NCBI GenBank assembly: GCA_030682405.1
Contig: JAUXOF010000047.1
Span: 18,877-82,876 of the forward strand
DNA: 64,000 nucleotides
Direction of reading: 5' to 3'
DNA from: Thermodesulfovibrionales bacterium
GTDB taxonomy: Bacteria; Nitrospirota; Thermodesulfovibrionia; Thermodesulfovibrionales; JdFR-86
Below, in pieces: positions 9,658-56,843 of the stretch. The notes below the pieces were generated by a model, which did not search any database, was not told the origin of the DNA, and saw nothing but the letters and a program-made list of their open reading frames with translations. The translations under genes and the position numbers were made by a program. The stretch's first letter is position 1. Every line of letters begins with the position of its first letter.

Positions 9658-9784
9658 TGTTTTTAATTAAAAATTAACGACTTATCACAATTTTTAAGTA
9701 TAAATTATTCCCCCAAATTTTGGCAAGCCGTTTTATCTATTGGGGTCTGCGTCGGATTTGCAGGGTTATCGGACGTAGACGCTA

Positions 9785-10018
9785 CTAAAGTTTTTTCAAA
9801 GAGTCAGCATATTCTTCAACATTCAGTTCTATGTCTTGTAAAATTTCCCTTATTAACGGTCGCGCCAAGGTTCTACCTTTATGATGCGGTACCGTGGTGG
9901 TTCGTCCGTCTGGATGACGATAAAATACATGGCTTCCTTTTTGACGGACGCTTTTAAATCCCATAAGGAACAAGAGCTTCTCCATTGTTTGAGCGTCGAT
10001 AAGGGACAACCTGCTCAA
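9785..10018 (-). CDS. hicA: HicA-family mRNA interferase toxin
   Basis: 77 aa with GFKSVRQKGSHVFYRHPDGRTTTVPHHKG, a typical HicA core. Confidence 0.85.
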   Translation of the reverse strand: MSRLSLIDAQTMEKLLFLMGFKSVRQKGSHVFYRHPDGRTTTVPHHKGRTLARPLIREILQDIELNVEEYADSLKKL

Positions 10019-13803: not shown

Positions 13804-13804
13804 T

Positions 13805-14581: not shown

Positions 14582-14592
14582 ACAGAGCGCTC

Positions 14593-15423: not shown

Positions 15424-16463
15424 TATCCGAACATCTCCCTCTCTATGTACTCGCAAAGCATGTGGCCCACAAGTATGTGCCCTTCCTGTATCCTCGGCGT
15501 GCTTTTGGAAGGTATGCATATGCCGACGTCCGCGAGCTTCACAAGTTCGGTGTCCTTTCTTTGCCCTGTGAGCACGACGGTTTTCATGCCGATTTTCTTT
15601 GCGGCCTCCACTGCCTTCACCACGTTTTTAGATGTCCCGCTTGTGGAGATTCCGATAAGGACGTCGCCCTTTTTGCCCTCGGCCTCTACCTGCCTTGCGA
15701 ATACCAAGTCAAAGCCGTAGTCATTGCCTATGGCAGTCAAGGAGGAGGTGTTACATGAAAGGGACTCCGCCGCGAGGGCCTTTCTTTCCATTAGAAATCT
15801 GCTTACGAGTTCCGTGGCCAGATGCTGGGCGTCCGAAGCGCTTCCGCCGTTTCCGCAGAAAAGGAGTTTTCCGCCCTTCCTGTAACAGTCAAGGAGAAGC
15901 TCGCCTGCCTTTTTTATGTCTTCCATTGTTTCGGTCTTTAGCGCCTTTATTGCCTCTATGTGCCCGTCTATGCAGCCGGTCCAGAAGGCGTCTTTAGGGT
16001 CTTTGTCCTGCGCCTTTATATGCATAAGGACTTCTTTAATCACCCCTTCTCCGCGCCTTGCGCTGAGGACGATGTTTGCGCAGGCCTTCGCCTCAGGGCC
16101 TGAGTCAGAGGGCGCAAAGCTCCACCTGAGATGCTCAAGGAGTGCCGCATCTTTTTTGGAGTCGCCCACGAATGCTATTTTAGATTCATCCAGAGAGTTC
16201 TTCTTTACGAGGGACTTAAAGCCCTTGAGCTTGTCCTTTGAGCCGGAGATGAAAAAGTCAGGGGAAAACCTCTGCCTTATGAACTCCGTAAAGGGCGTCT
16301 CCTCGGCGGTTATAAAGCCGGTCTTTATGCCCATGCGCTTAAGCTCAAAATATGCGTCAATGTCGTCAAAGGCTATCACCTTTGACTCTTCCCCGGACTT
16401 GTCTATGGTAACCTTGCCGTCCGTCAGTACGCCGTCTACATCAAATAAAATTATCTCAATCAT
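15423..16463 (-). CDS. Fusion protein: KdsC-type HAD sugar-acid-phosphate phosphatase (N-terminal) + GmhA/DiaA-type SIS sugar-phosphate isomerase (C-terminal)
   Basis: N-terminal LFDVDGVLTDGKV...AFVGDSKKD...GGEGVIKEV (KdsC pattern). C-terminal LFCGNGGSASDAQHLATEL...GISTSGTSKNV (SIS). ATG at 16463 is preceded by GAGGAG. Confidence 0.8.
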   Translation of the reverse strand: MIEIILFDVDGVLTDGKVTIDKSGEESKVIAFDDIDAYFELKRMGIKTGFITAEETPFTEFIRQRFSPDFFISGSKDKLKGFKSLVKKNSLDESKIAFVGDSKKDAALLEHLRWSFAPSDSGPEAKACANIVLSARRGEGVIKEVLMHIKAQDKDPKDAFWTGCIDGHIEAIKALKTETMEDIKKAGELLLDCYRKGGKLLFCGNGGSASDAQHLATELVSRFLMERKALAAESLSCNTSSLTAIGNDYGFDLVFARQVEAEGKKGDVLIGISTSGTSKNVVKAVEAAKKIGMKTVVLTGQRKDTELVKLADVGICIPSKSTPRIQEGHILVGHMLCEYIEREMFG

Positions 16464-16506
16464 GGTGCGCTCCTCTTTATCGTTTTCAGGGCTTAGAGCC
16501 CCCATT

Positions 16507-17361
16507 TTAGCGAATCGTCCAGCCGCCGTCAACAATAATGCTCTGTCCGGTAATGTAGTCCGAGGAGTCCGCGGATAGGAAGACGAGAGCGCCCTTTAAA
16601 TCCTCCGGCCTTCCGAACCTTCCCAGCACGGTTTTGTCCCTGAGCCTCTTAAGAAAGCCCTCGTCTTTGGGGCTGTTGTAAGAGCTTCCCTCCAGATTGG
16701 GGAATGCGCCCGGCAGGATGGAGTTGCAGCGTATCCCGTGTTCTCCGTAAAAAGATGCAATGTACCTTGTAAGGGCCGCGATTCCCGCCTTTGATACGCT
16801 GTAGGCCGGAGGGTTGAACATCTCGGTCCCTTTGTAAATCCCGGGGTCCGGCGAGACAAGGGCGTACATAGAGCTTATGTTTATTATCGAGCCGCTCTTT
16901 TGCCCCTTCATCTTCTCGCCTATGACCTGTATCGCAAGCGCGCTCCAGTAGACCCCTGACTCAAGGCTCTTCATCCACTGGGACTTGGACATCTTTTCCG
17001 CTTTGCCTGAGGGGTCGTTGAAACCGGTATCTTTGCTGAAGTCAAACGCATTGTTTACGAGTATATCAATGGACTTGTTCTTGCGTGCCGCATCTATAAG
17101 TGCCTTCCTGTAATCGTTCTCACTGTAGAAATCCGCCTTGTATTGCGTTACCTTCGCCTTTTTGTGAGTTGCCTTTAACGATTTGGCGAGTTTTTCAAGT
17201 TTCCCTGCGCTTCTTCCAAAAAGTATAACGTCTGCCCCTGCGGAAAGGAGGCACTCTGAAAACGCAGCGCCGAAATATCCGGTTGCGCCGGTTACCACGG
17301 CTGTCTTGCCTTTGAGGGAAAAAAGAGACCCTATTGAGCTGAATCTTGGTCTATCCGGCAT
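16507..17361 (-). CDS. Short-chain dehydrogenase/reductase, PtmA-like paralog
   Basis: KTAVVTGATGYFG, YSVSKAG, SADSSDYITGQSIIVDGGWT. Confidence 0.85.
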   Translation of the reverse strand: MPDRPRFSSIGSLFSLKGKTAVVTGATGYFGAAFSECLLSAGADVILFGRSAGKLEKLAKSLKATHKKAKVTQYKADFYSENDYRKALIDAARKNKSIDILVNNAFDFSKDTGFNDPSGKAEKMSKSQWMKSLESGVYWSALAIQVIGEKMKGQKSGSIINISSMYALVSPDPGIYKGTEMFNPPAYSVSKAGIAALTRYIASFYGEHGIRCNSILPGAFPNLEGSSYNSPKDEGFLKRLRDKTVLGRFGRPEDLKGALVFLSADSSDYITGQSIIVDGGWTIR

Positions 17362-18061
17362 GGGAGACGCCCGCCCTTTGCCGCTTAAGTATCCATTCGC
17401 ACACCTCTATATCCTCCGGGGAATCTATCTGGAAGGAGCTTAGAAAGTCCATCTCATAGACTTCAATCTTGCCGCCCAGCCGGTTGTTGAGTTCCACAAG
17501 GACATTCGGCTTGAATACGTAAATCGAGCCGTTTTCCATGAACTGCTCGGGAAAATCCTGCTCCCTCCACCGGTTTTTGTAGTCGTAGTTTACGGACTCC
17601 ACCTTATCGCCTTTCCTGCGCCAGATGAACTTGTTCCACCTGCATACCGAGAAAAGGGAATCTGCACCGGATTCGATGAAGAGCCTGACGGCGTTATCTA
17701 TGTCGTCAGGCTCTCTTACAGGTGAGGTGCACTGAAGAAATACGATAATGTCGGGCTGATACCCCTCTTGTTTCTGAAGGAGGCCAAGGACGTGCTGTAT
17801 TGCGGACTCGGACGTAGCCGTGGCAACGGCAAGCTCAGGCGGGCGCATTATGACCTCTGCGCCGTATTGCCTCGATATTTCCGCTATCTCCCCGTCGTCC
17901 GTTGAGACGAGCACGCGGCTTACCGAGCGGGAGCTTTTTGCGTGCTCTATGGAATGGGCTATGAGGGGCTTGCCTGACAGCGGCAGGAGGTTCTTCCTCG
18001 GTATGCGCTGGGAGCCTCCCCGCGCCGGGATAACGGCAATGACATTGGCCTGATGCGCCAT
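17351..18061 (-). CDS. Acylneuraminate (CMP-ulosonic acid) cytidylyltransferase family protein
   Basis: VIAVIPARGGSQRIPRKNLLPLSGKPLI signature; 236 aa. Confidence 0.88.
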   Translation of the reverse strand: MAHQANVIAVIPARGGSQRIPRKNLLPLSGKPLIAHSIEHAKSSRSVSRVLVSTDDGEIAEISRQYGAEVIMRPPELAVATATSESAIQHVLGLLQKQEGYQPDIIVFLQCTSPVREPDDIDNAVRLFIESGADSLFSVCRWNKFIWRRKGDKVESVNYDYKNRWREQDFPEQFMENGSIYVFKPNVLVELNNRLGGKIEVYEMDFLSSFQIDSPEDIEVCEWILKRQRAGVSHAG

Positions 18062-18933
18062 CAGTAAATTCGTCTTAGCTTTGAAATAATCGGCTTTTCG
18101 CTGTCATAAATCTTTATAACGCCGTTTCCGAGCGCTGCCTCTATGGTTCGAATGTCCCTTACGAGCCTCTTTAGGCCCTGAGGCTCTACAGAGGCGGCAT
18201 GGTCGCTGCCCCACATGCTCCTGTCAAGGGTGATGTGCCGCTCAATAACGCATGCGCCGAGAACCGCTGCCGCAACAGAAGTGGAAAGTCCCACCTCGTG
18301 CCCTGAATAACCGATGGGGATGCCGAAGCGCTCACTGAGGGTCTGAATGCCCCTGAGGTTAAGCTCCTCCGGCTTGGACGGATATGTGCTTGTGCAGTGA
18401 AGTATTATCAGGTCTCGTTTGCCTAACACCCCGACCGCATGCTCGATGAGCTTTAAGTCGCTCATGCCTGTGGAGAGTATTATAGGTTTTCCGTACTTCC
18501 TGTGGTGCTTAAGAAGGTTGTCGTCCGTAAGGGATGCGGAGGCTATCTTGTAAAACGGCAGGTTGAACTTCTCCATGAAGTCCGCCGCACCCTCGTCCCA
18601 GCACGATGCAGTCCATGCGATGCCCTTTTGCCTGCAGTATTTGTCTATCTCTGAATATTGCTTCTGACCGAACTCAAGGCCGCGCTTTAAGTCCCCGTTT
18701 GTCAGGCCGAAGGGGTTTTCTCTGGGTTTTGCCAGTTCCTCGGCAGAGTAGACGACCTCTACGGTCCTCTTCTGGAATTTGACCGCATCGCATCCGCAGT
18801 CTATGGCAACATCAATAAGCTGCTTTGCTATGTCTACGGAACCGTTGTGGTTTATGCCTATTTCGGCAATGATGTATGCAGGCTGCCCTTCCCCTACGGT
18901 TTTATCGCCTAATTTTACGGTCTTGAACTTCAT
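18061..18933 (-). CDS. NeuB-family PEP-condensing ulosonic acid synthase, short form lacking the C-terminal SAF domain
   Basis: YIIAEIGINHNGS..AVKFQKRT, KIASASLTD, STGMS. At 290 aa it ends where PseI and LegI continue into SAF. Confidence 0.85.
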   Translation of the reverse strand: MKFKTVKLGDKTVGEGQPAYIIAEIGINHNGSVDIAKQLIDVAIDCGCDAVKFQKRTVEVVYSAEELAKPRENPFGLTNGDLKRGLEFGQKQYSEIDKYCRQKGIAWTASCWDEGAADFMEKFNLPFYKIASASLTDDNLLKHHRKYGKPIILSTGMSDLKLIEHAVGVLGKRDLIILHCTSTYPSKPEELNLRGIQTLSERFGIPIGYSGHEVGLSTSVAAAVLGACVIERHITLDRSMWGSDHAASVEPQGLKRLVRDIRTIEAALGNGVIKIYDSEKPIISKLRRIY

Positions 18934-19128: not shown

Positions 19129-21268
<2,140 letters not shown>

Positions 21269-21272
<4 letters not shown>

Positions 21273-22633
21273 AGGTGTTGCTTCTTAACCCCCCTATCAG
21301 GGAATGGGCCAAGCCCAATGTCTTTCCGCTGGGCCTTGCATACCTTGCCTCTGTGCTCAAGGAGGGGGGCCACAAGGTTGAAGTCCTCGATATAAACGCC
21401 TTCAGATGGACGCGCGAGACTGTCGAGAGAAAAATCAAAGAGGCCGAGTTCGACCTGCTCGGCATCGGCGCCATTGTTACGGTTTACGGATACGTCAAGT
21501 GGCTCGTTGGGATTTCCAAAAAGCATCACCCGGATAGAAAGGTTGTCGTGGGCGGGAGCGTGGGCACTTCAATTCCGCATATCGTCCTTGAGAAGACGGA
21601 GACAGATATTGTCTGCATAGGCGAAGGAGAAAGGACCATTGTCGACATGGTAAAGGCATTGGAGAGAGGTGAAGACCTCTCCGGAGTCAACGGCATATGG
21701 TTCAGGGGGCAAGACGGCAGGATAATAAAGACCGGGGCGAGAGCCCCGATAGCGGACCTCGATGCAATCCCCCTGCCTGCATGGGATATCTTCCCCATGG
21801 ACATATACCTCAAAAACCCGGTCGGCGCGCCCAACAGGAACAAGTGGATAGACGGCGGCTCTTCGGAAAACGCAGCCCCGTCCATGAACCTCAGCGCCAC
21901 GAGGGGGTGCCCGTACAAGTGCATCTACTGCTACCACGACTTCATGGGCCAGAAGTACAGGCACAGGTCCCCGGGGAACATCATCCGCGAGATGAGGGCC
22001 CTCTACGACGTGTACGGGGTCAGGTATTTCCATTTCATAGACGACGAGTTCTGCCTCAAAAAGAGTTTCGTCTTTGACTTCTCGAAGGCCGTGAGGGAGG
22101 AGTTCGGAGGAGACGTGACATGGGGGTGCTCGGGCAGGGTCAACCTGATGACCGAGGAGATGATTGCCGCGATGGCAGAGGCCGGATGCGTCCTCATAGG
22201 CTACGGCATTGAGTCCGGAAGCCAGAGGATGCTCGACGTGATGAAAAAGGGGGTCACTGTGGAGCAGGCCAAAAATGCCGTCCGCATGACGATGAAGCGC
22301 CTGGGCTGGGCGGACTGCTCATTCATGATAGGCACTCCGGGAGAGAACATAGAGACCGTCCGGGAGACTATAGATTTCTGCAAGGAGATGGACCTTACCC
22401 CTGAGGTAATTTTCTTTGCCACGCCTTATCCCGGCACCGAGCTTTACGATATGGCCCTCGCTCTGGGGAAGATAAAGGACGAGGAGCAATACGTGCTCGG
22501 CCTCGGCGAGCAGGGCGAAAAGGTAAGGGTCAACTTCACCGAGCTCTCTGACGAAGAGCTTATGCGCACTCAGGAGGACATGATACGGGAGCTTGGCGCA
22601 TGGAACAAGCTCAGGCACCCGGAGAGCAGATAG
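21269..22633 (+). CDS. B12-binding-domain radical SAM enzyme (class B)
   Basis: N-terminal Rossmann PLGLAYLASVLKEGGHKVEVLD, cluster motif ATRGCPYKCIYCYH. ATGA overlap with pseC. Confidence 0.85.
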
Positions 22634-22634
22634 A

Positions 22635-23375
22635 ATGAACATACTATGCGTAATACCGGCGAGGGGGGGCAGCAAGAGGACCCCTGGCAAAAACATAAAG
22701 CCCCTCATGGGGAAGCCACTGATATCGTACACCATAGAGAAGGCCCTTGAAAGCAGGCTCGTAACGAGGGTCGTCGTCTCCACCGACAGCCCTGACATCG
22801 CCCGTGTGGCCCGGGACTTTGGGGCCGAGGTGGTCGAGAGGCCAGCGAATATCTCCGAGGACACCTCTGCAATAGACGACTCCCTCCGCCACGCGGTCAG
22901 GCATCTTGAGGCCGGAGAAGGCTTCAGGCCGGACGTGGTCGTGCTCCTTCAGGCGAACGTGCCGGTCAGGAAAGAAGGCGAGATAGACGAGGTCATAAGG
23001 GCGCTGCTTGAAAACCCCGAGGCGGAATCCGTAGCCACCGTCTACGAGGTAGACCAGCGGATAGAGTGGATGAAAAGGGTTGACGCAAGCGGAAAGGTCA
23101 CTCCCTTCATGGGGCAGACCGCCTCCTACAGGAAGCAGGACCTGCCGGAGCTTTACCTCATTGACGGGGCGATAGAGGCCGTCAGGACCGATACCCTCAT
23201 GAGGACAGAGGGCAATAGGATGGCCCACGCATATTTCGGCGAGCGCCTCTACGCCTTCATCCACGAAAAGAAATACGCTATAGAGGTGGACGTAGCGGAA
23301 GACCTTGAGATGGCGGAGTATTTCCTCGGCAGGGAGCATGTCCCCCTGCGGAGAGGCAAGAAGACCTCTGCCTGA
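22635..23375 (+). CDS. pseF: Pseudaminic acid cytidylyltransferase
   Basis: ILCVIPARGGSKRTPGKNIKPLMGKPLI. The ATG is 1 nt after the radical SAM stop. Confidence 0.88.
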   Translation: MNILCVIPARGGSKRTPGKNIKPLMGKPLISYTIEKALESRLVTRVVVSTDSPDIARVARDFGAEVVERPANISEDTSAIDDSLRHAVRHLEAGEGFRPDVVVLLQANVPVRKEGEIDEVIRALLENPEAESVATVYEVDQRIEWMKRVDASGKVTPFMGQTASYRKQDLPELYLIDGAIEAVRTDTLMRTEGNRMAHAYFGERLYAFIHEKKYAIEVDVAEDLEMAEYFLGREHVPLRRGKKTSA

Positions 23376-23403
23376 TAAACATGGGCATCCGGCAGAAGGG
23401 GTT

Positions 23404-24966
23404 ATGAGCGCAGAGAAGGTTCTAATCAGGGTGGACGCCTCAGCCGCCATAGGCATGGGACACGTGATGAGGTGCATAGCCTTTGCTCAGGGCATAAGCG
23501 GGATGGGCTTTGAGCCGGTCTTTGCGACCCGCACGGAAAACAACAGTCTACTTGAGAAGATAAAAAAAGAGGGGTTCAGGGCTTACCCCCTGAAAAACGG
23601 GGGGGGAGATAGGGGGAACCCCGACGAGCTTAAGGGGATAATCGGCAAAGAGAAGCCTTTGTGGGTCGTGCTTGACGGGTATCATTTCGGGACTGATTAT
23701 CAGAAGGCGATTAAGGATATGGGGCATCGTCTTCTGGTTATAGACGACATGGCGCACCTTACTCGCTATCACGCGGACATAATCCTCAACCAGAACTATG
23801 GGGCAGAAAGGCTTATTTATAAGGCGTTGCCTGAGACGCGGTTTCTCTTCGGCCCGAAATACGCCCTCTTAAGAAAAGAGTTCCTGCATTATGGTGATTT
23901 TAAAAGAGAAATCCCCCAAAAGGCCGAAAAGCTCCTTGTTACGATGGGAGGGGCCGACGCTGACAACTGCACAGGGAAAGTTCTCCGGTCATTAAAACTC
24001 ATAGACCTCCCGCTTCATGTGAAAGTCGTTGTAGGGGCAAGCAACCCCCACTACGAATCCCTAAAGTCCGCCGCCCCGGACAGCCGTCACAGGATTGAGT
24101 TTGTAAGAAACGTAGAGGATATGTCCCCTCTAATGGCATGGGCGGACATTGCAGTCTCGGCAGGCGGGACCACCACTTGGGAGCTTGCCTTCATGGGGCT
24201 TCCGACAGCACTCTGCATAATTGCAGACAATCAAGAGCCTGCGGTAAGAGCGCTTGAGAAGGACGGTTTTTTCGCCTCAGCCGGGCGGATCGGGGACAAA
24301 ACCGAAAAAGAGCTTTCATCGATAATTCAGGGGATAATAGACAATAGCGCGGCGACCCTTAGCGAAAAAGGCAAAAGGCTTGTCGACGGATACGGGGCAT
24401 TGAGAGCCGGGATAGAACTCATCGGGGGCGGGGAAGTCGCCCTAAGGAGGGACTTCGATTTCGGGCCGGTAAGGTTCGTGAACTTTATAAACCTCACACC
24501 CGAAGAAAAAGAGGCGGTACTCGGCTGGCGGAACTCAGATGAGATAAGAAAATGGATGTTTACAAGCCATATAATCTCAAAAAAAGAGCATCTGCGTTTT
24601 ATAGAGGGTCTCAGGGAAGATGGCAGGAATTTTTACTGGATGGCAAAGGTGGGGGGCAAGGCATCAGGGGTCGGCAGCTTTCAGAAGGTTGATGCCGAGA
24701 CAAGAAGCGGGCATCTCGGCATATATTCCGTGGAAAGGGGCGCAGGCAGGACAATTATGCAGCGCCTTTTATGCCTCTGGTTTGATATTCTGAAGATGCG
24801 TGTATTAAAATCCGAACTCATAGAGGGCAATGAACGGGCTCACAATTTTTATGAGGATTTCCAGTTTAAAGCCGAGGGCGTTGCACGCTCAATCGAAGAA
24901 AACGGCGTAACCAAAAAAGTTATAACAATGACAAAAACTAAAGAGAGCATTTCCAATGCGAATTAG
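23404..24966 (+). CDS. pseG: Fusion: UDP-2,4-diacetamido-2,4,6-trideoxy-beta-L-altropyranose hydrolase (PseG) + GNAT N-acetyltransferase (PseH-like)
   Basis: N-terminal IRVDASAAIGMGHVMRCIAFA and GGTTTWELAFMGLP (PseG, GT28-like). The C-terminal ~170 aa is GNAT-like (WRNSDEIRKWM..., NERAHNFYEDFQF). Confidence 0.8.
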   Translation: MSAEKVLIRVDASAAIGMGHVMRCIAFAQGISGMGFEPVFATRTENNSLLEKIKKEGFRAYPLKNGGGDRGNPDELKGIIGKEKPLWVVLDGYHFGTDYQKAIKDMGHRLLVIDDMAHLTRYHADIILNQNYGAERLIYKALPETRFLFGPKYALLRKEFLHYGDFKREIPQKAEKLLVTMGGADADNCTGKVLRSLKLIDLPLHVKVVVGASNPHYESLKSAAPDSRHRIEFVRNVEDMSPLMAWADIAVSAGGTTTWELAFMGLPTALCIIADNQEPAVRALEKDGFFASAGRIGDKTEKELSSIIQGIIDNSAATLSEKGKRLVDGYGALRAGIELIGGGEVALRRDFDFGPVRFVNFINLTPEEKEAVLGWRNSDEIRKWMFTSHIISKKEHLRFIEGLREDGRNFYWMAKVGGKASGVGSFQKVDAETRSGHLGIYSVERGAGRTIMQRLLCLWFDILKMRVLKSELIEGNERAHNFYEDFQFKAEGVARSIEENGVTKKVITMTKTKESISNAN

Positions 24967-25993
24967 CGGAAGAAGAATCGGCCCCGGGTATCCGGTATTC
25001 GTCATAGCCGAGATGTCCGGCAACCACAATCAGGACTTTGACGAGGCGGTTAGAATCATACAAGCGGCAAAGGGAGCCGGGGCTGATGCGATAAAGCTTC
25101 AGACATACACCGCAGACACCCTCACGATAGATTCTGACAGCGAATATTTCAGGATTAAGGGCACTCTATGGGAGGGACAAACCCTCTACAGCCTCTATAA
25201 AAAAGCATACACGCCGTGGGAGTGGCACCCGAAACTAAAAGAGGCGGCACAGGAAGCGGGGATAATACTTTTCTCCACCCCGTTTGACAAAACCGCAGTA
25301 GATTATCTCGAAAAGATGGAAGTCCCGGCCTATAAGATAGCCTCTTTCGAGCTTGTGGACATCCCGCTAATAGAATACGCCGCCTCAAAGGGCAAGCCCA
25401 TGATAATGTCAACCGGCATGGCCACCCTCGATGAGATAAAAGAGGCGGTTGATGCGGCAAGGGGAGCGGGAGCAAAAGACATTGCCCTTCTTAAATGCAC
25501 AAGCGCATACCCCGCGCCTCCGGAGGAGATGAACCTGAGGACCATAGCCGACCTATCTGAAAGGTTCGGAGTCGTATCAGGGCTTTCCGACCACTCAATG
25601 GGCATAGCCGTGCCTGCTGCCTCTGTTGCCTTGGGCGCATCCATAATAGAGAAGCACCTCACTTTATCCCGCGCAAAGGGCGGCCCTGATTCGGCTTTCT
25701 CTCTTGAGCCTTCCGAGTTTGCGGCTATGGTTGAAACCGTCAGGGTTGCAGAGAAGGCCGTCGGCGCGGTGCATTACGGGCTTACAGAGAAAGAGGAGAA
25801 AAGCAAGGTATTCAGGAGGTCCCTTTTTGTGGTAAAGGACGTGAAAGCAGGCGATATCTTTACGGAGGATAATGTGCGCTCTATAAGGCCCGGACACGGG
25901 CTTAAACCCAAGCACATAAAGGATGTTTTGGGGAAAAAGGCATCTAAAGACATTAAAAAAGGCACCCCCCTTGACCAGTCTATGCTCCGGTGA
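24956..25993 (+). CDS. pseI: Pseudaminic acid synthase
   Basis: VIAEMSGNHNQD..AIKLQTYTADTLT, YKIASFELVD, STGMATL, C-terminal SAF VKDVKAGDIFTEDNVRSIRPG. Confidence 0.9.
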   Translation: MRISGRRIGPGYPVFVIAEMSGNHNQDFDEAVRIIQAAKGAGADAIKLQTYTADTLTIDSDSEYFRIKGTLWEGQTLYSLYKKAYTPWEWHPKLKEAAQEAGIILFSTPFDKTAVDYLEKMEVPAYKIASFELVDIPLIEYAASKGKPMIMSTGMATLDEIKEAVDAARGAGAKDIALLKCTSAYPAPPEEMNLRTIADLSERFGVVSGLSDHSMGIAVPAASVALGASIIEKHLTLSRAKGGPDSAFSLEPSEFAAMVETVRVAEKAVGAVHYGLTEKEEKSKVFRRSLFVVKDVKAGDIFTEDNVRSIRPGHGLKPKHIKDVLGKKASKDIKKGTPLDQSMLR

Positions 25994-26045
25994 CAAACCC
26001 CCCATCGTTTGATTAATCGCCGCGGATTCGGTTATCATATTGTTT

Positions 26046-27482
26046 ATGAATAGCGGCAAGACTAACAATAAAACCGGGAATCCCATGAACATATTATGGG
26101 TCTCCGGCGCGGCATTGGAAGGCCTCTGGGGGGCGGAAATATCGAAAAGGCTCGCAGGGAGCGGCTTTAATGTCGTTTTTCTGACCAACATGAAGCAGAC
26201 ATACGCTAAACTGAAGGAGGCGGGCTGCGACTGCCACCTTTTGTCGGACATTGCAATACCTCATAAAAAGGCGTTTACAGGCGCGGAACTCCAAGAGATT
26301 GAACGGAAATACGAGTACCCTGGGTTCAATAACCTGAGGAGTGCGGACGAGACCATAAGCGGCCTGCCTATGGACGAGGCGAACTCCATAGTCGCGTCTT
26401 ATTATCTGGCCGTTGAAGGGCTTTTTGAAAAGTACGGTTTCGGGAATTTGATAATGTTTCCTACCTCTGCCATTCAGGGCCGTGTGCCGTATTCCGTAGC
26501 AAAGGGCCGGGGGGCGCGGACCCTCATCCCGTACTGGGGCCCGGTGCACAACGATATGTTTGTGATTCTGGACGTATCCGAGGAATGGATATGGTCCGAG
26601 CTTTTTTCGGGTTCCCTCGCCGGGCCGGGCGAGGCTGAGATAAAAAGTGTCATAAGTGAAATCGAAAAGAAGCTCCTGTCGGCAAGGCAGCCAAGCTCAC
26701 AGAGCAGGATACAACAGGCAATCCGAATATCTCTAAATTGCCTTAGATATTTGCGCAGTTATAAAAGGGATTACGATTTCGCCGTGCGCGCACGGCTCGC
26801 TGAGATGAAAAAGGACATAAGGAGCTTCAGTGGGTTCTTTAGGAAATACCTTTTCAGGCATGACGAGTTCATCCCCGAGGGCAAATACGTATTTTTCCCG
26901 CTGCACTGCCATTTCGATGCCGCCCTACAGGCTGCCAATCCTATGTTCACCGACCAGTGCGCCCTTGTTAAAAACACAGCCAAGAGTCTTCCGGTAGGCT
27001 ACACCCTCTACGTGAAAGAGCATCCTTACGACGAGGGATATCTTAAAATCAGCCAGCTAAAAGAATTAAGGAGGATGGGCAACGTCAAAATCCTTCACCC
27101 TGCCGTAAGAAGCATACACATACTAAAAAATGCCTCGGCAGTGGTTACCATATCGAGTTCCGCCGGGTGGGAGGCCTTTCTTTTCAAAAAACCGGTTGTC
27201 GCCTTCGGCAGCTCCTTTTACGCGGAGTGCGACCTTATTTACAAGGTGAACGCTATGAAAGGACTCAAAGATATACTTTGGGAGGCGTTAAAAAAGGGCG
27301 AGTCCATTTATTCGGAGAGGGACGGCGAATATATGTCTTTCATTGGAAAGATAATCGCTGACTGCAGGCCCGGCAATGCCTGCGGCTATAAGTCTTCATT
27401 CGGCTGGGGATTCGACAGCAAAAAGGACGCGGAGCTTATAGCCGCGGGGCTTCTCTCAAAACTTCAGGCCGAAGCCGAATAG
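26046..27482 (+). CDS. Capsule-polysaccharide biosynthesis protein, KpsS/KpsC (Capsule_synth)-like putative CMP-sugar-acid transferase
   Basis: YVFFPLHCHFDAALQ..., LYVKEHPYDEG, VVTISSSAGWEAFLFKKPVVAFG. Start is ambiguous (26040 TTG, 26046 ATG or 26085 ATG). Confidence 0.55.
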   Translation: MNSGKTNNKTGNPMNILWVSGAALEGLWGAEISKRLAGSGFNVVFLTNMKQTYAKLKEAGCDCHLLSDIAIPHKKAFTGAELQEIERKYEYPGFNNLRSADETISGLPMDEANSIVASYYLAVEGLFEKYGFGNLIMFPTSAIQGRVPYSVAKGRGARTLIPYWGPVHNDMFVILDVSEEWIWSELFSGSLAGPGEAEIKSVISEIEKKLLSARQPSSQSRIQQAIRISLNCLRYLRSYKRDYDFAVRARLAEMKKDIRSFSGFFRKYLFRHDEFIPEGKYVFFPLHCHFDAALQAANPMFTDQCALVKNTAKSLPVGYTLYVKEHPYDEGYLKISQLKELRRMGNVKILHPAVRSIHILKNASAVVTISSSAGWEAFLFKKPVVAFGSSFYAECDLIYKVNAMKGLKDILWEALKKGESIYSERDGEYMSFIGKIIADCRPGNACGYKSSFGWGFDSKKDAELIAAGLLSKLQAEAE

Positions 27483-27489
27483 ACCGCTT

Positions 27490-29007
27490 ATGCCCTCAGG
27501 GAGACTCTTTAAGAACATCTCCTACAGCTATGCCGCAGTTTTCGTAAACCTTGTAGGCGGCATAGCCGTATTTCCAATTCTCCTTCGCGCAATCGGCAAG
27601 GAAAAATACGGGCTGTTCGTGCTTTTTCTCACATATTCCGCTACCGGCATATACTCTTTCTTGGATTTGGGCCTGAGGAACTCGGCTGTAAAGTACATAG
27701 CGGAAGACAACGCGCTCGGCAATACCGAGGGAGTGCTAAAGATAATAAACACCGTTTTTTCATTTCTTCTTCTGGCTACCGCCGCGTCGGTTGTCGTCAA
27801 CGTCTTCATATACTTTTTCTTTCTCGACGGCTGGCTCGCTTCCCTTTCGCACGAGGTGGTGAAGTATAAATACCTCTTTTATGTGTTCACCTGCTTCAAC
27901 GTCGTTTTCTTTATCCGTACGGCCCTCGATTCCTTTCTGGACGGCTTTCAGAGGATTGACGACTCAAGCAAGGCCATGATGGCCCAAGGGATACTCTTAA
28001 TGGCAGGCACTTGTGTAATCGCAGTCTACTTTACGGCAAGGGCCTTTGAACTCTACGTATACTTCGTATTGCTTCTTGAGGCGCTGACGGTCTTATATCT
28101 CGCTATCGCATGCAAAAGGGTCTTCCCCCAGTTCAGGTTCTCCGCCTCGATGGCCAGCCGCGAAACATTCAGGAGAATCCGGGGGCTTGGTATGAATTTC
28201 TTCGTAAACCGGCTTAACGGAGTTGCATTCTCACAAGCCCCGAAGATAATACTCGGGGCGTATAGCATAAGCACCCTCGCCGAATTCGACATAGTTTTTA
28301 AGTTTTCCAATCTCATGAAGCTTTCCATGGGCTCGATTAACAGGGCCATCTTCCCGCTGACCTCCGGCCACCACGCTGAGAGAAATTACGATAAGATAAA
28401 AACGACGTTTGTGCTTAGCACCCTTTTCAGCACCGCCTTTGCCTCGGCAATCGCTGTATTCATAATGGTCTTCCCGGACAAACTGCTTTACTTCTGGCTT
28501 AAAGACCCCTCCTACCAGAATCTCGCAGGGGTCCTCGCATATTCCGTGATATGGGCCTTCCCCGTGTCGTTCATCAACGCCGGGAGCGTGATGCTCGGCG
28601 CGGTGAACGAGATACGGAGGGCTGTGGCCTGGACCGCCGCCGGCACCGTCCTCTCGGTCGCCTCAGCGGTATGGCTCGTGGACGTCTGGGGGCTCTACGG
28701 GATGTTCACTGCGCTGTTTATAGCCTCCCTTTTTCCGGTCCCGATATATTTCATACTTATCAAGGAAAAACTGCAAATCCCTTACAAAACCATCGGTAGC
28801 AGTGTGCTTCTAAGGTCCTTTATAATAATAGCCTCCCTGACAGCGATATGCCTTACGGGCAGGTATGTTTTTGTTATGGACTCTCTTGGGAAAATGCTCG
28901 CAACTGGCATGATAGTCCTCCTCGCTTCCGGCCTCATGTCAATTCTCCTTCTTAGCAAGGGCGAGCGGGCCCTTGTGTCCGGTGTGGCATTCGGAAAAAA
29001 ATGGTAA
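27490..29007 (+). CDS. wzx: Polysaccharide flippase (Wzx / MOP superfamily)
   Basis: 505 aa, hydrophobic throughout with about 12-14 helices; typical position in a glycan locus. Confidence 0.75.
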   Translation: MPSGRLFKNISYSYAAVFVNLVGGIAVFPILLRAIGKEKYGLFVLFLTYSATGIYSFLDLGLRNSAVKYIAEDNALGNTEGVLKIINTVFSFLLLATAASVVVNVFIYFFFLDGWLASLSHEVVKYKYLFYVFTCFNVVFFIRTALDSFLDGFQRIDDSSKAMMAQGILLMAGTCVIAVYFTARAFELYVYFVLLLEALTVLYLAIACKRVFPQFRFSASMASRETFRRIRGLGMNFFVNRLNGVAFSQAPKIILGAYSISTLAEFDIVFKFSNLMKLSMGSINRAIFPLTSGHHAERNYDKIKTTFVLSTLFSTAFASAIAVFIMVFPDKLLYFWLKDPSYQNLAGVLAYSVIWAFPVSFINAGSVMLGAVNEIRRAVAWTAAGTVLSVASAVWLVDVWGLYGMFTALFIASLFPVPIYFILIKEKLQIPYKTIGSSVLLRSFIIIASLTAICLTGRYVFVMDSLGKMLATGMIVLLASGLMSILLLSKGERALVSGVAFGKKW

Positions 29008-29015
29008 AATAATTT

Positions 29016-30401
29016 GTGATATTCAGGGGCGGCACAGACGTAGTTTTAGCCGTTGACCACAAGTGGAGGGATCTTCCGGGGCTTGCGGCCATTTCGGTGT
29101 GGCTTCAGGAGGGCTTTGGGCTAAAGACCGAGCTTGTCCCCAACGGCCTTTGGCACGAAAGCCTGATAAGGCTCAGGCCGAAGGTGTTCGTCGTCCCGAT
29201 TTTATTCGGCGACTACAGCAGGAAGTTAGTTTCCATCGCCCGCGAGATGGGCACGAAGATAGCCGTCGTTATGACCGAGGGGAGGCCCAACAACCTCCAG
29301 GGCCTCGACTACATGGTGGGTAGGCACTCGGGCTCAGGCGACGCGGACCTCTGGCTCACGTGGAGCGACACGGTGAGGGACTACATGATAGAGAAAGAAG
29401 TGCTTCCCCCCGAAAAAATTATAACCGTGGGCGCCCACCGCTTCGACATATACAGGGAGCCGTTAAGCAGCCTCATAATGCCCCGCGACCGATTCCTAAA
29501 AAAATACGGCCTTGACTGCAACCGCCCCATCGTGAGTTGGGCCACCAATTTCACGCATGCGAAGTTCCACTTCTCAAACATTGAGTTCCTTAAGGAGAAC
29601 TGGCGGAGCCTTGGCCTTCTGAAATACCCGGCATACAAAGACCCTGCAGAGGTCTCCCGTAAAGACCACGAGGCGCGGGTCATGAGCGCGGAGGCCATTA
29701 GAAAGCTCCTTAAGGCAAGGCCTGAGATACAGCTTGCCGTAAAGCCCCATCCCTCCGAGGAGCACGACTACTACGAAGGGTTCGTGAGGGAGTGCAGGGC
29801 GGAGTTCGGCCCGCGCGTCGTGTTCATCGGCTCCGAATACATCTGGGACCTCCTCGCCGCCGCGGACGTCCACATAGACAGGCTCTGCACAACAGGGGTC
29901 GAGGCTTGGTTTCTGGACACCCCGTCCATAGACCTGCACCTCATGGACTATATGCCGTGGTCCGTTCATCTTGAGGGCTCGGCCTCCGAGGCATTGAGGG
30001 GGAACGACCTCGTGGACGATGCGGACTCTCTCATTGAGAAGGTTGACTACTACCTGAAGGGCGGAAGGCCTACGGAGGAGATGATGAGGGCGAGGCAGGA
30101 GTATATCCTGAGATGGCTTTACAGGGTTGACGGCAACCGGTGCCTTGAGGCCGCGCGCGCGCTTGCCGGGCTTCTTGACGGCGCGGGCGTGAGTCTCCCG
30201 GGCTTCAAGTGGGAGCATGTTGACGCGCTTTTCTCCGGGGTGAAGACCAGACTTTGGCTCAGATTAACCCACCGGGTGGATACGATACGGCAGGTGGACA
30301 AGGTGATATCTTCAGGGGACGCCAAGAAGTGGCTTCGGGCCGTGCGCGGGGCGCTTCTGCCCGCGATATCGGAGCTTAAGGCGAAGGGCTCTTTAAAATA
30401 A
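29016..30401 (+). CDS. Putative GT-B-fold polysaccharide biosynthesis transferase (KpsS/KpsC- or TagF-like), function unknown
   Basis: LAVKPHPSEEHDYY...VVFIGSEYIWDLLAAADVHIDRLCTTGVEAWF parallels the donor-binding half of the two other Capsule_synth-like ORFs. GTG start. Confidence 0.4.
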   Translation: MIFRGGTDVVLAVDHKWRDLPGLAAISVWLQEGFGLKTELVPNGLWHESLIRLRPKVFVVPILFGDYSRKLVSIAREMGTKIAVVMTEGRPNNLQGLDYMVGRHSGSGDADLWLTWSDTVRDYMIEKEVLPPEKIITVGAHRFDIYREPLSSLIMPRDRFLKKYGLDCNRPIVSWATNFTHAKFHFSNIEFLKENWRSLGLLKYPAYKDPAEVSRKDHEARVMSAEAIRKLLKARPEIQLAVKPHPSEEHDYYEGFVRECRAEFGPRVVFIGSEYIWDLLAAADVHIDRLCTTGVEAWFLDTPSIDLHLMDYMPWSVHLEGSASEALRGNDLVDDADSLIEKVDYYLKGGRPTEEMMRARQEYILRWLYRVDGNRCLEAARALAGLLDGAGVSLPGFKWEHVDALFSGVKTRLWLRLTHRVDTIRQVDKVISSGDAKKWLRAVRGALLPAISELKAKGSLK

Positions 30402-30433
30402 CCGCCGGCCCGCGAGATGTGGGAGGTAAAAAC

Positions 30434-31375
30434 ATGAGCGTGCAATGCCCGGTGTGCTCCTCAGGGAACTCGATACTCAAGGAAACATACGGAAAATACG
30501 GAATCCGCCTCTGCGGGGACTGCGACCTCGTATTCTCAGACCCGATGAGGACGGACATGGGGTTTTACGAGACCTCCGAGGACTACGCCGACAGGGACGG
30601 CATCATGTTCGATTCGATGAAGTGGCACGAGCGCTGGGACGTAATGGAGTTTCTGAAGACCCCGCCGGTTAAGGCCGGAAGCCTCCTCGACATAGGCTGC
30701 GGAACCGGGTTTTTCGTCAAAAGGGCTGTGGACATGGGGCTTAAAGGATACGGGATAGACTTCAACGAGCGCTCGATAGAGAGCGGGCGCAGGCGCTTCG
30801 GGCTGGATACCCTCTATGCGACCGACATCAAGGGCTTCATCTCGGCCAACCCCGGCCTTGGGTTTGATGCTGTGACGCTTTTTCACATACTTGAGCACGT
30901 GGAGGACCCAAATCGGCTCATGGACGAGATACAGGGCGTGCTCAAGGACAACGGGGTTCTGGTCATAGCCGTGCCCCTTAGGGACAGGTGGCCGGATTTC
31001 GTCAGGAAGGAGATAGACAGCCCCCCTCACCACCTCACAAGGTGGTCCATAAGGGCGCTTGAAAAATTCCTCGGAAGAAACGGCTTCCGGGTGACAAGGC
31101 GCAGGGTGCAGGGCTTCCCGATGGATGTCGTGACAGGTCTCATCTATAAGTTCGTCCTCAAGGTCGCCCCCTCGCTGACCCTTAGGGGACAGAAGGTCTC
31201 TGAAAGAAGCGGGCAGGGAGAGCTTGGCGAGCGGGAGATTGAGGCCATCATGAAAAAGCGCAGGCTCAAGATAATGGCGGCGGGCGTTTTGGGGTTCCCG
31301 TTCTGGCTCGCCCTTAAGCTCATTGGGGCAAAAGGCCCGCTTGTCTATATAGAGGCAAGGCGTGGGGGCATTTAA
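30434..31375 (+). CDS. Class I SAM-dependent methyltransferase with N-terminal Zn-ribbon and C-terminal hydrophobic tail
   Basis: CPVCSS...CGDCDLVF, motif I LLDIGCGTGFF. ATG at 30434 follows GGGAGG. Confidence 0.8.
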   Translation: MSVQCPVCSSGNSILKETYGKYGIRLCGDCDLVFSDPMRTDMGFYETSEDYADRDGIMFDSMKWHERWDVMEFLKTPPVKAGSLLDIGCGTGFFVKRAVDMGLKGYGIDFNERSIESGRRRFGLDTLYATDIKGFISANPGLGFDAVTLFHILEHVEDPNRLMDEIQGVLKDNGVLVIAVPLRDRWPDFVRKEIDSPPHHLTRWSIRALEKFLGRNGFRVTRRRVQGFPMDVVTGLIYKFVLKVAPSLTLRGQKVSERSGQGELGEREIEAIMKKRRLKIMAAGVLGFPFWLALKLIGAKGPLVYIEARRGGI

Positions 31376-31377
31376 AA

Positions 31378-32766
31378 TCAGCTCTGCCTGAAGCCGCGGA
31401 AGCTTGCGTCTTTCCCCAGATAAAGCTTCTCTGCCTGCTTAACTACGGAAACCGATTTTTTCTCGAAGTAGTTTTTGATAAGAACTGCGTTTGCCTCAAA
31501 AAGCGCTTCGTGGAACCGGTCGTCGCTAAGCTCGGTAAAGTTTATGGAAAGCAGGTCTGAGTTTGTGTGCTTGTTCTCGTAGAAGTCCTCGCAGTCCTTA
31601 AGCAGCCCCCTGTCCATTGCCTCATAATAAAGGGGTGAGCCCGGATAAGGCGTGACAGGCCTTATGTGGCGCAACTGTGCGCCGTCGTCGTATTTAAGAA
31701 GAAACTCCACGCCCTTCCTCAGGGTCTCTGTGTTGTCGCCTATGTTGCCGAAGATGATGTTGAACCCGGGGCTTATGCCCGCCGAAAGCGTGGCCTCTAT
31801 GCCCTTTATTATCTGCCCCGTCGTAAGGGCCTTTTTCATGTTCTTAAGGACGATATCGTCCATCGCCTCTATGCCGTAGTTTATGAAAACGCACCCGGCC
31901 TCCTTCATCACCTTGAGCATTCCGGGTTTTGCGTAATTGAGCCTGCCGTTACAGTCCCATTTAATGTTCAACTTCGCCTTTATAAAATCCTCGCAGAGGC
32001 TTTCCGTTCTTTGCACGGAAGACATGAGAAGCTCGTCCGAGAACGCTATGAACGTAATCCCGTAATCGCGCTTCAGCAGCTTTATCTCCTCGATTATCGC
32101 CTCGTTGCTCCTCGGCCTGAACCCCTTGTCCATGCGGTAGCAGAAGGTGCACCTGAAGGTGCAGCCCCTCCCCGAAAGCATGGGCATGACGAAATCGGAA
32201 TTCCTTGTGTGGGGCATACGAAGAAGCCTGTATAAGTCTATAGGGAAGAGATCGAACGCAGGGAAGGGTATGGTGTCTATGTCCTTTATCAGGGGCCTTC
32301 TTTCGTTCACTGCGGTCTTTCCGCCGTCGTTGTACGCTATCCCTTTTACAGAGGAAAACGGCCTTTTCCCGGATACTGCATCGAGGAGCTCAAGGACGGT
32401 TATCTCCCCTTCGCCTATCACTATAGCGTCTGCCCCGGTCTTCCTCATGAAGAACTCGGGATCGGGAGAAGGGCCGTGTCCCCCTATTATATAAAACGGC
32501 CTCTGTTTGGATCCGTTTATCGCGCCTGATATGCCGAGCAGCTTTCTGTACTGGTAGTAGCCTGCGATAACGCTTACGCCCACTATGTCGAAGCGGTTCT
32601 TGTCAAGGTATTCCTTCAGATGGTCGTCGGAGTAGTGGTGCTTGTCTTGATTATAGACTGTCACGTCAATGCCGTTTTTCCTTAAAACGGCGGCTATGTA
32701 GGCAAGCCCCTGAGGGAACCAGTGGATGTAGGAGTCGTTGTCGTAAACTATAAGGAGGACCCTCAT
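31378..32766 (-). CDS. B12-binding-domain radical SAM enzyme (class B), second copy
   Basis: PQGLAYIAAVLRKNGIDVTVYN, SGRGCTFRCTFCYR. The ATG at 32766 forms an ATGA overlap with the upstream ORF. Confidence 0.85.
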   Translation of the reverse strand: MRVLLIVYDNDSYIHWFPQGLAYIAAVLRKNGIDVTVYNQDKHHYSDDHLKEYLDKNRFDIVGVSVIAGYYQYRKLLGISGAINGSKQRPFYIIGGHGPSPDPEFFMRKTGADAIVIGEGEITVLELLDAVSGKRPFSSVKGIAYNDGGKTAVNERRPLIKDIDTIPFPAFDLFPIDLYRLLRMPHTRNSDFVMPMLSGRGCTFRCTFCYRMDKGFRPRSNEAIIEEIKLLKRDYGITFIAFSDELLMSSVQRTESLCEDFIKAKLNIKWDCNGRLNYAKPGMLKVMKEAGCVFINYGIEAMDDIVLKNMKKALTTGQIIKGIEATLSAGISPGFNIIFGNIGDNTETLRKGVEFLLKYDDGAQLRHIRPVTPYPGSPLYYEAMDRGLLKDCEDFYENKHTNSDLLSINFTELSDDRFHEALFEANAVLIKNYFEKKSVSVVKQAEKLYLGKDASFRGFRQS

Positions 32767-33047
32767 CTTAAGCCCTTTTCTTCCTCGATGAGCCTCTCGA
32801 ACCTGTAGCGGCACCTCACGTGGCCTTCAAGCGAAGGCAGATGCGCGCCGCCCGCGATGTCGGTTGAATTGCAGTTGGGGCAGGCCTCCTCGTGGCACAG
32901 GCAGACCTCCCCGCATTTGCGGCATACCCTGTAGAGATTGCCTTTTGTCGCGGGGGAATTTATGAGAATCTTAATCCGTATCCTTCTTTCTCTTTCTATC
33001 CATGCCGGATATTCAGCATCAAGGTTGGGGTCAGGGTCAAGCTTCAT
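32763..33047 (-). CDS. Small Zn-ribbon protein of unknown function
   Basis: 94 aa with CRKCGEVCLCHEEACPNC. Translationally coupled on both sides (1-nt and 4-nt overlaps). Confidence 0.55.
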   Translation of the reverse strand: MKLDPDPNLDAEYPAWIERERRIRIKILINSPATKGNLYRVCRKCGEVCLCHEEACPNCNSTDIAGGAHLPSLEGHVRCRYRFERLIEEEKGLR

Positions 33048-35780: not shown

Positions 35781-35805
35781 CTGATTATTTTACCCTAAGG
35801 GGCTG

Positions 35806-38245: not shown

Positions 38246-38300
38246 GGCAGAACAGTCCCCCTGTTATAGGCAGGGGAAACCGTGTCTTTCCCTGCCGCTC

Positions 38301-39359: not shown

Positions 39360-39360
39360 G

Positions 39361-42151: not shown

Positions 42152-42156
42152 TGCCT

Positions 42157-55233: not shown

Positions 55234-55234
55234 C

Positions 55235-56818: not shown

Positions 56819-56843
56819 GCCGGCATCTCCTTGTCCATGTCTC

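Follow-up and report, generated by a model that had tools for sequence, protein, structure and literature searches.

The presence of a gene for a B12-binding radical S-adenosylmethionine (SAM) protein inside an operon for the biosynthesis of pseudaminic acid (Pse) raises the question of what such an enzyme contributes to the pathway. The gene, here called rSAM1, lies in a 64,000-nucleotide stretch of contig JAUXOF010000047.1 (positions 18,877 to 82,876; assembly GCA_030682405.1) from a Thermodesulfovibrionales bacterium of the phylum Nitrospirota. We refer to this whole stretch as the window and list its features in Table 1. An NCBI entry derived from a Thermodesulfovibrionales metagenome-assembled genome (MAG) has exactly the sequence of the encoded protein. 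Our results suggest that carriers of rSAM1 make a chemically altered Pse, possibly one that is carbon-methylated.

The original prediction, made from the nucleotide sequence, described rSAM1 as a class B-type radical SAM enzyme with an N-terminal cobalamin-binding domain and the motif CPYKCIYC, and as an integral operon member between pseC and pseF, tied to the former by an ATGA overlap and ending 1 nt before the latter. All of this was borne out. Read directly from the sequence, the start codon ATG (21269-21271) overlaps the pseC stop codon TGA (21270-21272) as ATGA, and the stop codon TAG (22631-22633) is followed by a single base, A at 22634, and then by the ATG of the pseF-like gene at 22635 (MNILCVIPARGGSKR...). 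The genes from 19141 to 25993 overlap or abut, and no convincing plus-strand terminator was found inside this interval. Gene identities were assigned using NCBIfam/TIGRFAM equivalog models and their cut-offs. PseB, PseC, PseH, PseG and PseI all score above these cut-offs and are co-oriented, which identifies the locus as a pse operon; within the fused pseG-pseH product, the PseG part (residues 38-316) reaches 254.3 bits with TIGR03590 (cut-off 153.55) and the PseH part (residues 393-542) reaches 124.2 bits with TIGR03585 (cut-off 93.1). All six functions of the canonical pse operon of Campylobacter and Helicobacter are thus also encoded in the window, five of them passing equivalog cut-offs, and the window differs from that operon in the extra B12-radical SAM gene, in the fusion of PseG with PseH and in a PseF-like protein that scores below its cut-off. 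Since all six canonical Pse enzymes are encoded in the window, rSAM1 is best viewed as a step added to a complete PseB/C/H/G/I/F set and not as a replacement for one of its members.

The assignment of rSAM1 to the radical SAM superfamily follows from its CxxxCxxC motif, from a match to PF04055 on residues 209-371 (93 bits, Pfam cut-off 29.5) and from the radical SAM core fold of its structural model. Its class B architecture is given by the Rossmann-like B12-binding domain ahead of the core, which matches PF02310 at 63.6 bits (Pfam cut-off 32.1). The motif cysteines C214, C218 and C221 are invariant throughout a 24-sequence alignment of the rSAM1 family, as are C116, C287, C307 and C371, which were considered with an auxiliary Fe-S cluster in mind. 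C307, part of an 'AGC' motif, is common to rSAM1, AprD4 and rSAM2, a paralogue also encoded in the window; C287 is common to rSAM1 and rSAM2, C371 is missing from rSAM2, and neither rSAM2 nor MgmA retains C116. We infer that rSAM1 uses cobalamin. A B12-type domain is present in AprD4 although cobalamin is not used by that enzyme; at the sequence level, the N-terminal domain of rSAM1 can be aligned with the cobalamin domains of CysS, OxsB and TsrM but not with AprD4, which is a modest pointer toward cobalamin use.

It had been proposed that pse loci of related anaerobes be surveyed for co-occurrence. We identified 20 independent loci with an rSAM1 orthologue (L001-L015, L017, L019, L021, L027 and L028) using tblastn, our own labelling of open reading frames (ORFs) and precomputed Pfam matches, with L013 and L014 resting on tblastn. 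In 20 of 20 loci the orthologue, 58-94% identical to rSAM1, is encoded within a pse-type cluster. The genomes belong to Nitrospirota, Omnitrophota, Planctomycetota, Cloacimonadota, Thermodesulfobacteriota, Margulisiibacteriota and Actinomycetota, and to one Altiarchaeales archaeon. A CTP_transf_3 cytidylyltransferase is encoded at most two genes downstream of rSAM1 in every one of these loci and a PseC-type aminotransferase just upstream in 17 of the 20; PseB is usually also present, and a NeuB-type synthase is found within 10 kb wherever the length of the contig allows. The best 120 database clusters match rSAM1 over its full length at 65-100% identity, and come from Nitrospirota, Omnitrophota, Planctomycetota, Cloacimonadota and one Altiarchaeales archaeon, all uncultured. 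Mean column identity in the 24-sequence alignment is 75%, and the dN/dS ratio between rSAM1 of the window and its 94% identical orthologue is 0.19, consistent with purifying selection. The presence of rSAM1 in the pse operon is therefore not a chance insertion, and its proposed membership of the Pse pathway is strongly reinforced by a synteny that extends over at least seven bacterial phyla and into one archaeon, together with the signature of purifying selection.

Beyond these orthologues, identity to rSAM1 drops to 44-48% in the closest proteins that are not family members, and 9,501 representatives fall below E = 1e-30 (both in a library clustered at 50% identity), so that the rSAM1 family appears to form a tight orthologous group inside a very large radiation. 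A relative with 48% identity, P0122, also adjoins a cytidylyltransferase gene and lies beside flagellar genes. A tblastn search of rSAM1 against 72,556 plasmids returned nothing above 30% identity.

The clusters that contain rSAM1 fall into two architectures. Type A clusters (the window and at least nine loci) have the order PseB, PseC, an amidotransferase with HisH and HisF or a methyltransferase (in some), rSAM1, PseF-like, PseG (with PseH in some) and PseI. Type B clusters, found in L002, L003, L006, L009, L010 and the archaeal L019 and L020 (Altiarchaeales), begin with PseB, an RmlD-like reductase fused to PseC (~720 aa) and a class III aminotransferase ahead of rSAM1, which is followed by a GFO/IDH/MocA oxidoreductase, a cytidylyltransferase, an aminotransferase and, further on, the synthase. 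The type B synthases score higher with the NeuB model than with the PseI model, and their cytidylyltransferases give no match to PseF, whereas all tested type A partners match PseF at 102-140 bits, short of its cut-off. As an observation in its own right, this suggests that type B clusters make an undescribed nonulosonic acid from the PseB/PseC precursor. The PseF-like partners in four type A loci other than the window score 102-128 bits with the PseF model TIGR03584 (cut-off 205.7), and the type A partners of rSAM1 would thus constitute a PseF-like but distinct subfamily of cytidylyltransferases.

Pairwise identities across loci, given as descriptive means ± standard deviation, are uniform for rSAM1 (69±4%, minimum 63), PseB (62±6%) and PseC (57±6%), and bimodal for the cytidylyltransferase (41±14%) and the synthase (46±11%). 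rSAM1 is the most conserved protein of the pse-type cluster. Only PseB, PseC and rSAM1 are common to both architectures at uniformly high identity, while the cytidylyltransferase and the synthase split into different families. Because rSAM1 travels with PseB and PseC across pathways that differ in their late steps, we lean toward a common early uridine diphosphate (UDP)-sugar as the more likely substrate, rather than the finished nonulosonate. Mirror-tree correlations of rSAM1 with each of its partners are weak (Spearman 0.04-0.27), since rSAM1 identities span only 63-74%.

We then considered which kind of radical SAM enzyme rSAM1 might be. The original prediction had allowed that the protein could cluster with a family of established but unrelated function; rSAM1 reaches no curated family cut-off, its NCBIfam and Pfam matches being at superfamily level only. 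The scores are 187.8 bits for HpnJ (TIGR03471; cut-off 577.6), 172.1 for BchE (TIGR02026; 481.35), 147.9 for ApyD (750), 141.8 for PhpK (600), 136.2 for MgmA/QCMT (TIGR04014; 360) and 90 for AprD4 (NF033070; 500), the last over the core only. An identity as HpnJ was rejected given a score far below the cut-off and a context of pse genes with no hopanoid genes, and BchE was rejected given its score and a window with no photosynthesis genes. MgmA/QCMT was set aside on its score and on a host that is a bacterium and not a methanogen with methyl-coenzyme M reductase (MCR), and the AprD4 diol dehydratase on a sub-threshold match confined to the core.

The AlphaFold (AF2) model of rSAM1 has a predicted local distance difference test (pLDDT) score of 82 and a predicted template modelling (pTM) score of 0.85. 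When this model was compared with the PDB using Foldseek, the top matches were all class B structures, namely MgmA, TsrM, AprD4, OxsB, CysS and TokK, with similar significance. Judged from the model, the fold appears equally close to methylating (MgmA, TsrM, CysS, TokK) and non-methylating (AprD4, OxsB) class B enzymes, and no sequence or fold signature separated class B methylases from non-methylases for rSAM1. The best solved sequence relatives are MgmA/QCMT, AprD4, TsrM, OxsB and CysS. The first of these, MgmA/QCMT, an MCR glutamine C-methyltransferase, gives the best PDB sequence match (86.8 bits with a single sequence, 100.3 bits with a profile) as well as the best Foldseek match (E 2e-23), and resembles rSAM1 in length (~450 aa); it differs in that identity is only ~23%, its substrate is a protein and its genomic context is unrelated. 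The corresponding PDB entry, 9CCB, is identified as MgmA/QCMT in published work (PMC12931638, PMC11796369). The second-best PDB sequence match is AprD4 (6FD2), a radical SAM 1,2-diol dehydratase that acts on an amino sugar, as rSAM1 presumably does, but the likeness in sequence is confined to core residues 207-405 and AprD4 works without cobalamin. HpnJ, a non-methylating class B enzyme, likewise acts on an amino-sugar moiety.

By description, rSAM1 also resembles further established enzymes in presumed chemistry and gene context. GenK, GenD1, Fms7 and MoeK5 are cobalamin-dependent class B C-methyltransferases that act on sugar carbons, and like rSAM1 they combine an N-terminal B12 domain with a radical SAM core and are encoded in a sugar-tailoring cluster. 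They differ in acting on aminoglycoside or moenomycin intermediates in actinomycete secondary metabolism, and we know of no enzyme of this type in nonulosonic-acid pathways. Fom3 is a class B methylase of 2-hydroxyethylphosphonate activated with cytidine monophosphate (CMP-HEP); its gene is paired, like rSAM1, with that of a cytidylyltransferase, so that by analogy a CMP-linked substrate is possible for rSAM1, although Fom3 belongs to phosphonate and not to sugar metabolism.

We tentatively propose, at somewhat under an even chance, that rSAM1 is a dedicated tailoring enzyme that C-methylates an intermediate of the PseB/PseC-initiated 5,7-diamino-nonulosonic-acid pathway. The original prediction had named a C-methylated Pse, or one with an altered N-acyl group, as the possible product, and our results support that reading in part. 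C-methylation is favored because the known sugar-acting class B enzymes that depend on cobalamin (GenK, GenD1, Fms7 and MoeK5) are C-methyltransferases and, by analogy, because Fom3 methylates a CMP-linked substrate. Since PseH, PseG and PseI look canonical, the rSAM1 step must keep the 4-amino group and the overall altro-hexose shape of the intermediate. In type A clusters this speaks against DesII-like deamination and against rearrangement of the skeleton; our best guess is the addition of a small substituent to an unactivated carbon. DesII-like deamination was also rejected for type A clusters on the retention of PseH, which acetylates the 4-amine.

In the scheme that we infer, which takes in the methyl transfer itself as well as its substrate and position, a [4Fe-4S] cluster bound by C214, C218 and C221 would reductively cleave SAM to give a 5'-deoxyadenosyl radical, which would abstract hydrogen at an unactivated carbon in the pathway intermediate. 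Methylcobalamin held in the N-terminal domain would then pass a methyl group to the substrate radical. The most likely substrate would be UDP-4-amino-4,6-dideoxy-beta-L-AltNAc or its N-acetylated form, with CMP-Pse as the alternative. Methylation at the 6-methyl group of the hexose would lead to a 10-carbon backbone, at a carbinol carbon to a branched sugar and at the N-acetyl methyl group to an N-propionyl group, and all three are candidate sites. The product would be a C-methylated Pse, heavier by 14.016 Da, that the divergent PseF-like enzyme would activate as a CMP-sugar for transfer to a surface glycan.

Several observations weigh against this proposal, and most of them bear on one of its competitors. 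In our homologue searches no cultured carrier of rSAM1 was found, the carriers being MAGs only. The highest curated-model scores go, with near full-length alignments, to the non-methylating HpnJ and BchE, which is weak evidence either way, and AprD4, already second among PDB sequence matches, has the highest TM-score for the rSAM1 model (0.73/0.73). These results would fit non-methylating radical chemistry in the same pathway, that is hydroxylation or oxidation, dehydration or deamination followed by reduction, epimerization or skeletal rearrangement, which we consider a serious, if somewhat unlikely, competitor. A BchE-like enzyme might convert N-acetyl to N-glycolyl or 9-methyl to 9-hydroxymethyl anaerobically, an AprD4- or DesII-like enzyme might dehydrate or deaminate a substrate that is then reduced, and an OxsB- or HpnJ-like enzyme might rearrange it. 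Type B clusters lend this some weight, as they surround rSAM1 with an RmlD-like reductase-PseC fusion, a GFO/IDH/MocA oxidoreductase and a class III aminotransferase, a redox set that resembles the logic of AprD4/AprD3 and DesI/DesII. Type A clusters, the window included, have no such redox partners, however, and for deamination or rearrangement the retained PseH, PseG and PseI, the last far above its equivalog cut-off, speak against the idea. Unrelated B12-radical SAM proteins of the same islands give equal, generic scores with HpnJ, BchE and PhpK, so the HpnJ and BchE scores of rSAM1 lie within the range of any class B protein and their ranking says nothing on chemistry. The resemblance of the N-terminal domain to true cobalamin binders, and not to AprD4, also counts against non-methylating chemistry.

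The remaining contrary observations concern the stage at which rSAM1 acts. The cytidylyltransferase is its sole universal neighbor (20 of 20 loci, and 1 nt apart in the window) and also adjoins the 48% identical relative P0122, which points to the CMP-activation step and away from an early substrate. At L001, rSAM1 and PseF both share 94-95% identity with their counterparts in the window, against only 60-65% for PseB and PseC, a pattern of co-inheritance more in keeping with a functional link to the CMP step than with one to the UDP-sugar step. Together with the sub-threshold PseF-like subfamily formed by the partner proteins, this would be expected if rSAM1 were a class B methyltransferase acting on finished CMP-Pse through its CMP handle, as Fom3 acts on CMP-HEP. 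We nevertheless judge this improbable, as rSAM1 is 63-74% identical between cluster types whose synthases and cytidylyltransferases belong to different families, and because of this difference in families the final sugars of types A and B probably differ. Separately, in L001, the contig of the closest relative, a 106-aa ORF directly upstream of the orthologue (9684-10004) matches the C-terminus of PseC and comes after an inserted amidotransferase-HisH-HisF block, which looks like a recombination scar splitting an rSAM-PseF module from PseB-PseC.

That rSAM1 is a passenger acting on an unrelated substrate (another glycan sugar, a lipid or a protein) is very improbable, since its slot between PseC and the cytidylyltransferase is constant across phyla and both architectures, its gene junctions are of the translational-coupling type and its conservation is the highest of all cluster proteins, even though the islands carry many other B12-radical SAM genes (L015, L016, L021, L027, L028) and the glycosyltransferases and acceptors vary between loci.

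The rSAM1 gene is not the only one of its kind in the window. At the 3' end of a minus-strand legionaminic acid (Leg)-type operon lies rSAM2, whose product is 31% identical to rSAM1. Conservation is equally high in the rSAM2 family, whose members are 72-79% identical across Nitrospirota, Syntrophorhabdus, Bacillota, Vulcanimicrobiota, Schekmanbacteria and Omnitrophota, and in two distant genomes (L025 and L026) its members are encoded within leg clusters that adjoin flagellin and Maf glycosyltransferase genes. These arrangements indicate that rSAM2 is the likely counterpart of rSAM1 for the Leg series. More B12-binding radical SAM genes are found in or beside pse-type clusters at L015 (3391-5085), L021 (12075-13760 and 19327-20901), L027 (7858-9888, where the extra gene occupies the usual PseC slot), L028 (7399-8844) and L016 (five copies); none of these extra proteins reaches a curated family cut-off. 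Because rSAM2 occurs in leg clusters and further B12-radical SAM genes in several pse clusters, radical tailoring of 5,7-diamino-nonulosonic acids appears, from gene content, to be a general feature of anaerobes.

To our knowledge, the known variants of these sugars all bear N- or O-linked substituents added by ordinary transferases, and the conservation of a radical enzyme within the core operon points to a reaction at a sugar carbon that is not activated. A full-text search, with subscription-only literature outside its scope, turned up no paper in which pseudaminic, legionaminic or nonulosonic acids, flagellin glycosylation or sialic acid are connected with radical SAM enzymes. The enzyme class and the operon are each known, but the conserved occurrence of a class B radical SAM component in nonulosonic-acid operons appears to be undescribed. 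If our proposal is true, it would add a new dimension to nonulosonic-acid diversity in anaerobes and archaea, and would extend the substrates of cobalamin-dependent radical SAM enzymes to the class of nucleotide sugars. Our analysis also defines two families to which current annotation pipelines give either the bare name 'radical SAM protein' or the wrong names 'YgiQ' and 'BchE', these being the only labels that rSAM1 carries in databases.

The proposal may also bear on sugars already seen by mass spectrometry. 'Higher carbon', possibly 10-carbon, ulosonic acids were detected in this way in Magnetospirillum gryphiswaldense and, to a lesser extent, in Methanococcus (Kleikamp et al. 2020, PMC8157484). 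According to the SugarBase preprint of 2026, higher-carbon ulosonic acids are CMP-activated and of the Pse/Leg type, and their backbone marker ion lies 14 Da higher, at m/z 311.10 instead of 297.09 (bioRxiv 10.64898/2026.04.20.719630). These 10-carbon CMP-ulosonic acids were reported without an assigned gene (PMC8157484; 10.64898/2026.04.20.719630). A C-methylating radical SAM enzyme encoded in the operon would yield exactly such a 10-carbon species, heavier by 14 Da, and a C-methylating rSAM1 could therefore explain the reported compounds, which we take as a lead and not as evidence. Together with its Leg-series paralogue rSAM2, rSAM1 is a concrete candidate gene for the sugars of the 2020 and 2026 reports. 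The wider proposition that the rSAM1 (Pse-type) and rSAM2 (Leg-type) families are the missing genes behind these species, and C-methylate the sugar skeleton to give 10-carbon CMP-ulosonic acids, a new sialic-acid-like class that anaerobic bacteria and archaea would widely carry on their flagella and surface glycans, is doubtful at present.

Table 1. Positions of rSAM1, of its operon and of other features of the window; the last two rows give positions in other loci.
Feature	Position	Strand	Details
rSAM1	21269..22633	+	454 aa, B12-binding-domain radical SAM protein (Pfam PF02310 + PF04055)
N-terminal B12-binding (Rossmann-like) domain of rSAM1	21317..21643	+	residues 17-125; PF02310
CxxxCxxC radical SAM [4Fe-4S] motif, CPYKCIYC	21908..21931	+	C214, C218, C221; read from sequence
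pseB, UDP-GlcNAc inverting 4,6-dehydratase	19141..20127	+	TIGR03589 529.5 bits (cut-off 407.75); 4-nt overlap with pseC
pseC, UDP-4-amino-4,6-dideoxy-AltNAc aminotransferase	20124..21272	+	TIGR03588 515.9 bits (cut-off 423.5)
pseF-like CMP-sugar cytidylyltransferase	22635..23375	+	PF02348; best match PseF TIGR03584, 139.8 bits (cut-off 205.7)
pseG-pseH fusion	23305..24966	+	mechanical ORF start 23305; likely true start ATG 23404
pseI, pseudaminic acid synthase	24956..25993	+	TIGR03586 524.7 bits (cut-off 340.25)
KpsS/C-like Capsule_synth protein	26040-27482	+	
Wzx-type flippase	27490-29007	+	
BFO_1060-family glycosyltransferase	29016-30401	+	NF046086 BFO_1060_trans 233.1 bits (cut-off 200)
Class I methyltransferase	30419-31375	+	
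Second KpsS/KpsC-like Capsule_synth protein	11306-12988	-	
rSAM2, paralogous B12-binding radical SAM protein	31378..32814	-	database product 462 aa; likely start 32766
N-acetyl-sugar amidotransferase	33047-34270	-	legionaminic-type operon
HisH	34267-34914	-	legionaminic-type operon
HisF	34911-35780	-	legionaminic-type operon
Short-chain dehydrogenase/reductase (SDR)	35806-36600	-	legionaminic-type operon
Cytidylyltransferase (LegF)	36597-37307	-	legionaminic-type operon
GFO/IDH/MocA (PtmF-like)	37304-38245	-	legionaminic-type operon
CBS+NTP-transferase (PtmE-like)	38301-39359	-	legionaminic-type operon
UDP-GlcNAc 2-epimerase (LegG)	39361-40530	-	legionaminic-type operon
NeuB+SAF (LegI)	40527-41531	-	legionaminic-type operon
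PglD/LegH	41528-42244	-	legionaminic-type operon
LegC	42157-43302	-	legionaminic-type operon
LegB-like	43299-44291	-	legionaminic-type operon
Xylose-isomerase-like (sugar-isomerase-like) TIM barrel	14593-15519	-	third cluster
HAD-SIS fusion	15423-16535	-	third cluster
Cytidylyltransferase	17351-18061	-	third cluster
Short NeuB without SAF domain	18061-18933	-	third cluster
rSAM2 homologue, L025	9001-10389		order PtmE-LegF-rSAM2
rSAM2 homologue, L026	9001-10389		order LegB-LegC-LegH-LegG-rSAM2-LegI-PtmE-LegF

The window as a whole forms a large island of surface-glycan genes, in which three ulosonic-acid clusters are found. On the plus strand, the pse operon is followed by co-oriented genes (26040..31375) for a KpsS/C-like protein, a Wzx flippase, a glycosyltransferase of the BFO_1060 family, which takes its name from a Tannerella forsythia protein, and a methyltransferase. 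This glycosyltransferase and the two Capsule_synth proteins of the window are candidate transferases for its nonulosonic acids. The second cluster is the complete legionaminic-type operon on the minus strand (31378-44291), which ends with rSAM2 and whose HisF, HisH and amidotransferase genes predict an acetamidino derivative of the sugar. Directly upstream of it (44355-46991, minus strand), a gene encodes an 878-aa protein in which an AMP-binding adenylation domain is fused to phosphopantetheine carrier and acyltransferase domains, and which may provide an unusual N-acyl group. The third, ulosonic-acid-like cluster (12982-18933, minus strand) encodes a short NeuB, a cytidylyltransferase, SDR proteins, a HAD-SIS fusion and a TIM barrel; a similar set of short NeuB, cytidylyltransferase and SDR genes also adjoins the pse-rSAM cluster of the Cloacimonadota contig L021 (2174-4490).

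No flagellin or Maf gene was found within the window, and the island is flanked by genes for LpxC, GDP-mannose dehydratase and glycosyltransferases of families 2 and 4, so that the glycan acceptor in this organism is probably a polysaccharide or a general O-glycan. Elsewhere in the window, two ORFs with no Pfam match (54472-56851) adjoin a pair of minus-strand genes (56844-61356) whose products, one of which has 1301 aa, carry N-terminal methylation motifs like those of type IV pilins.

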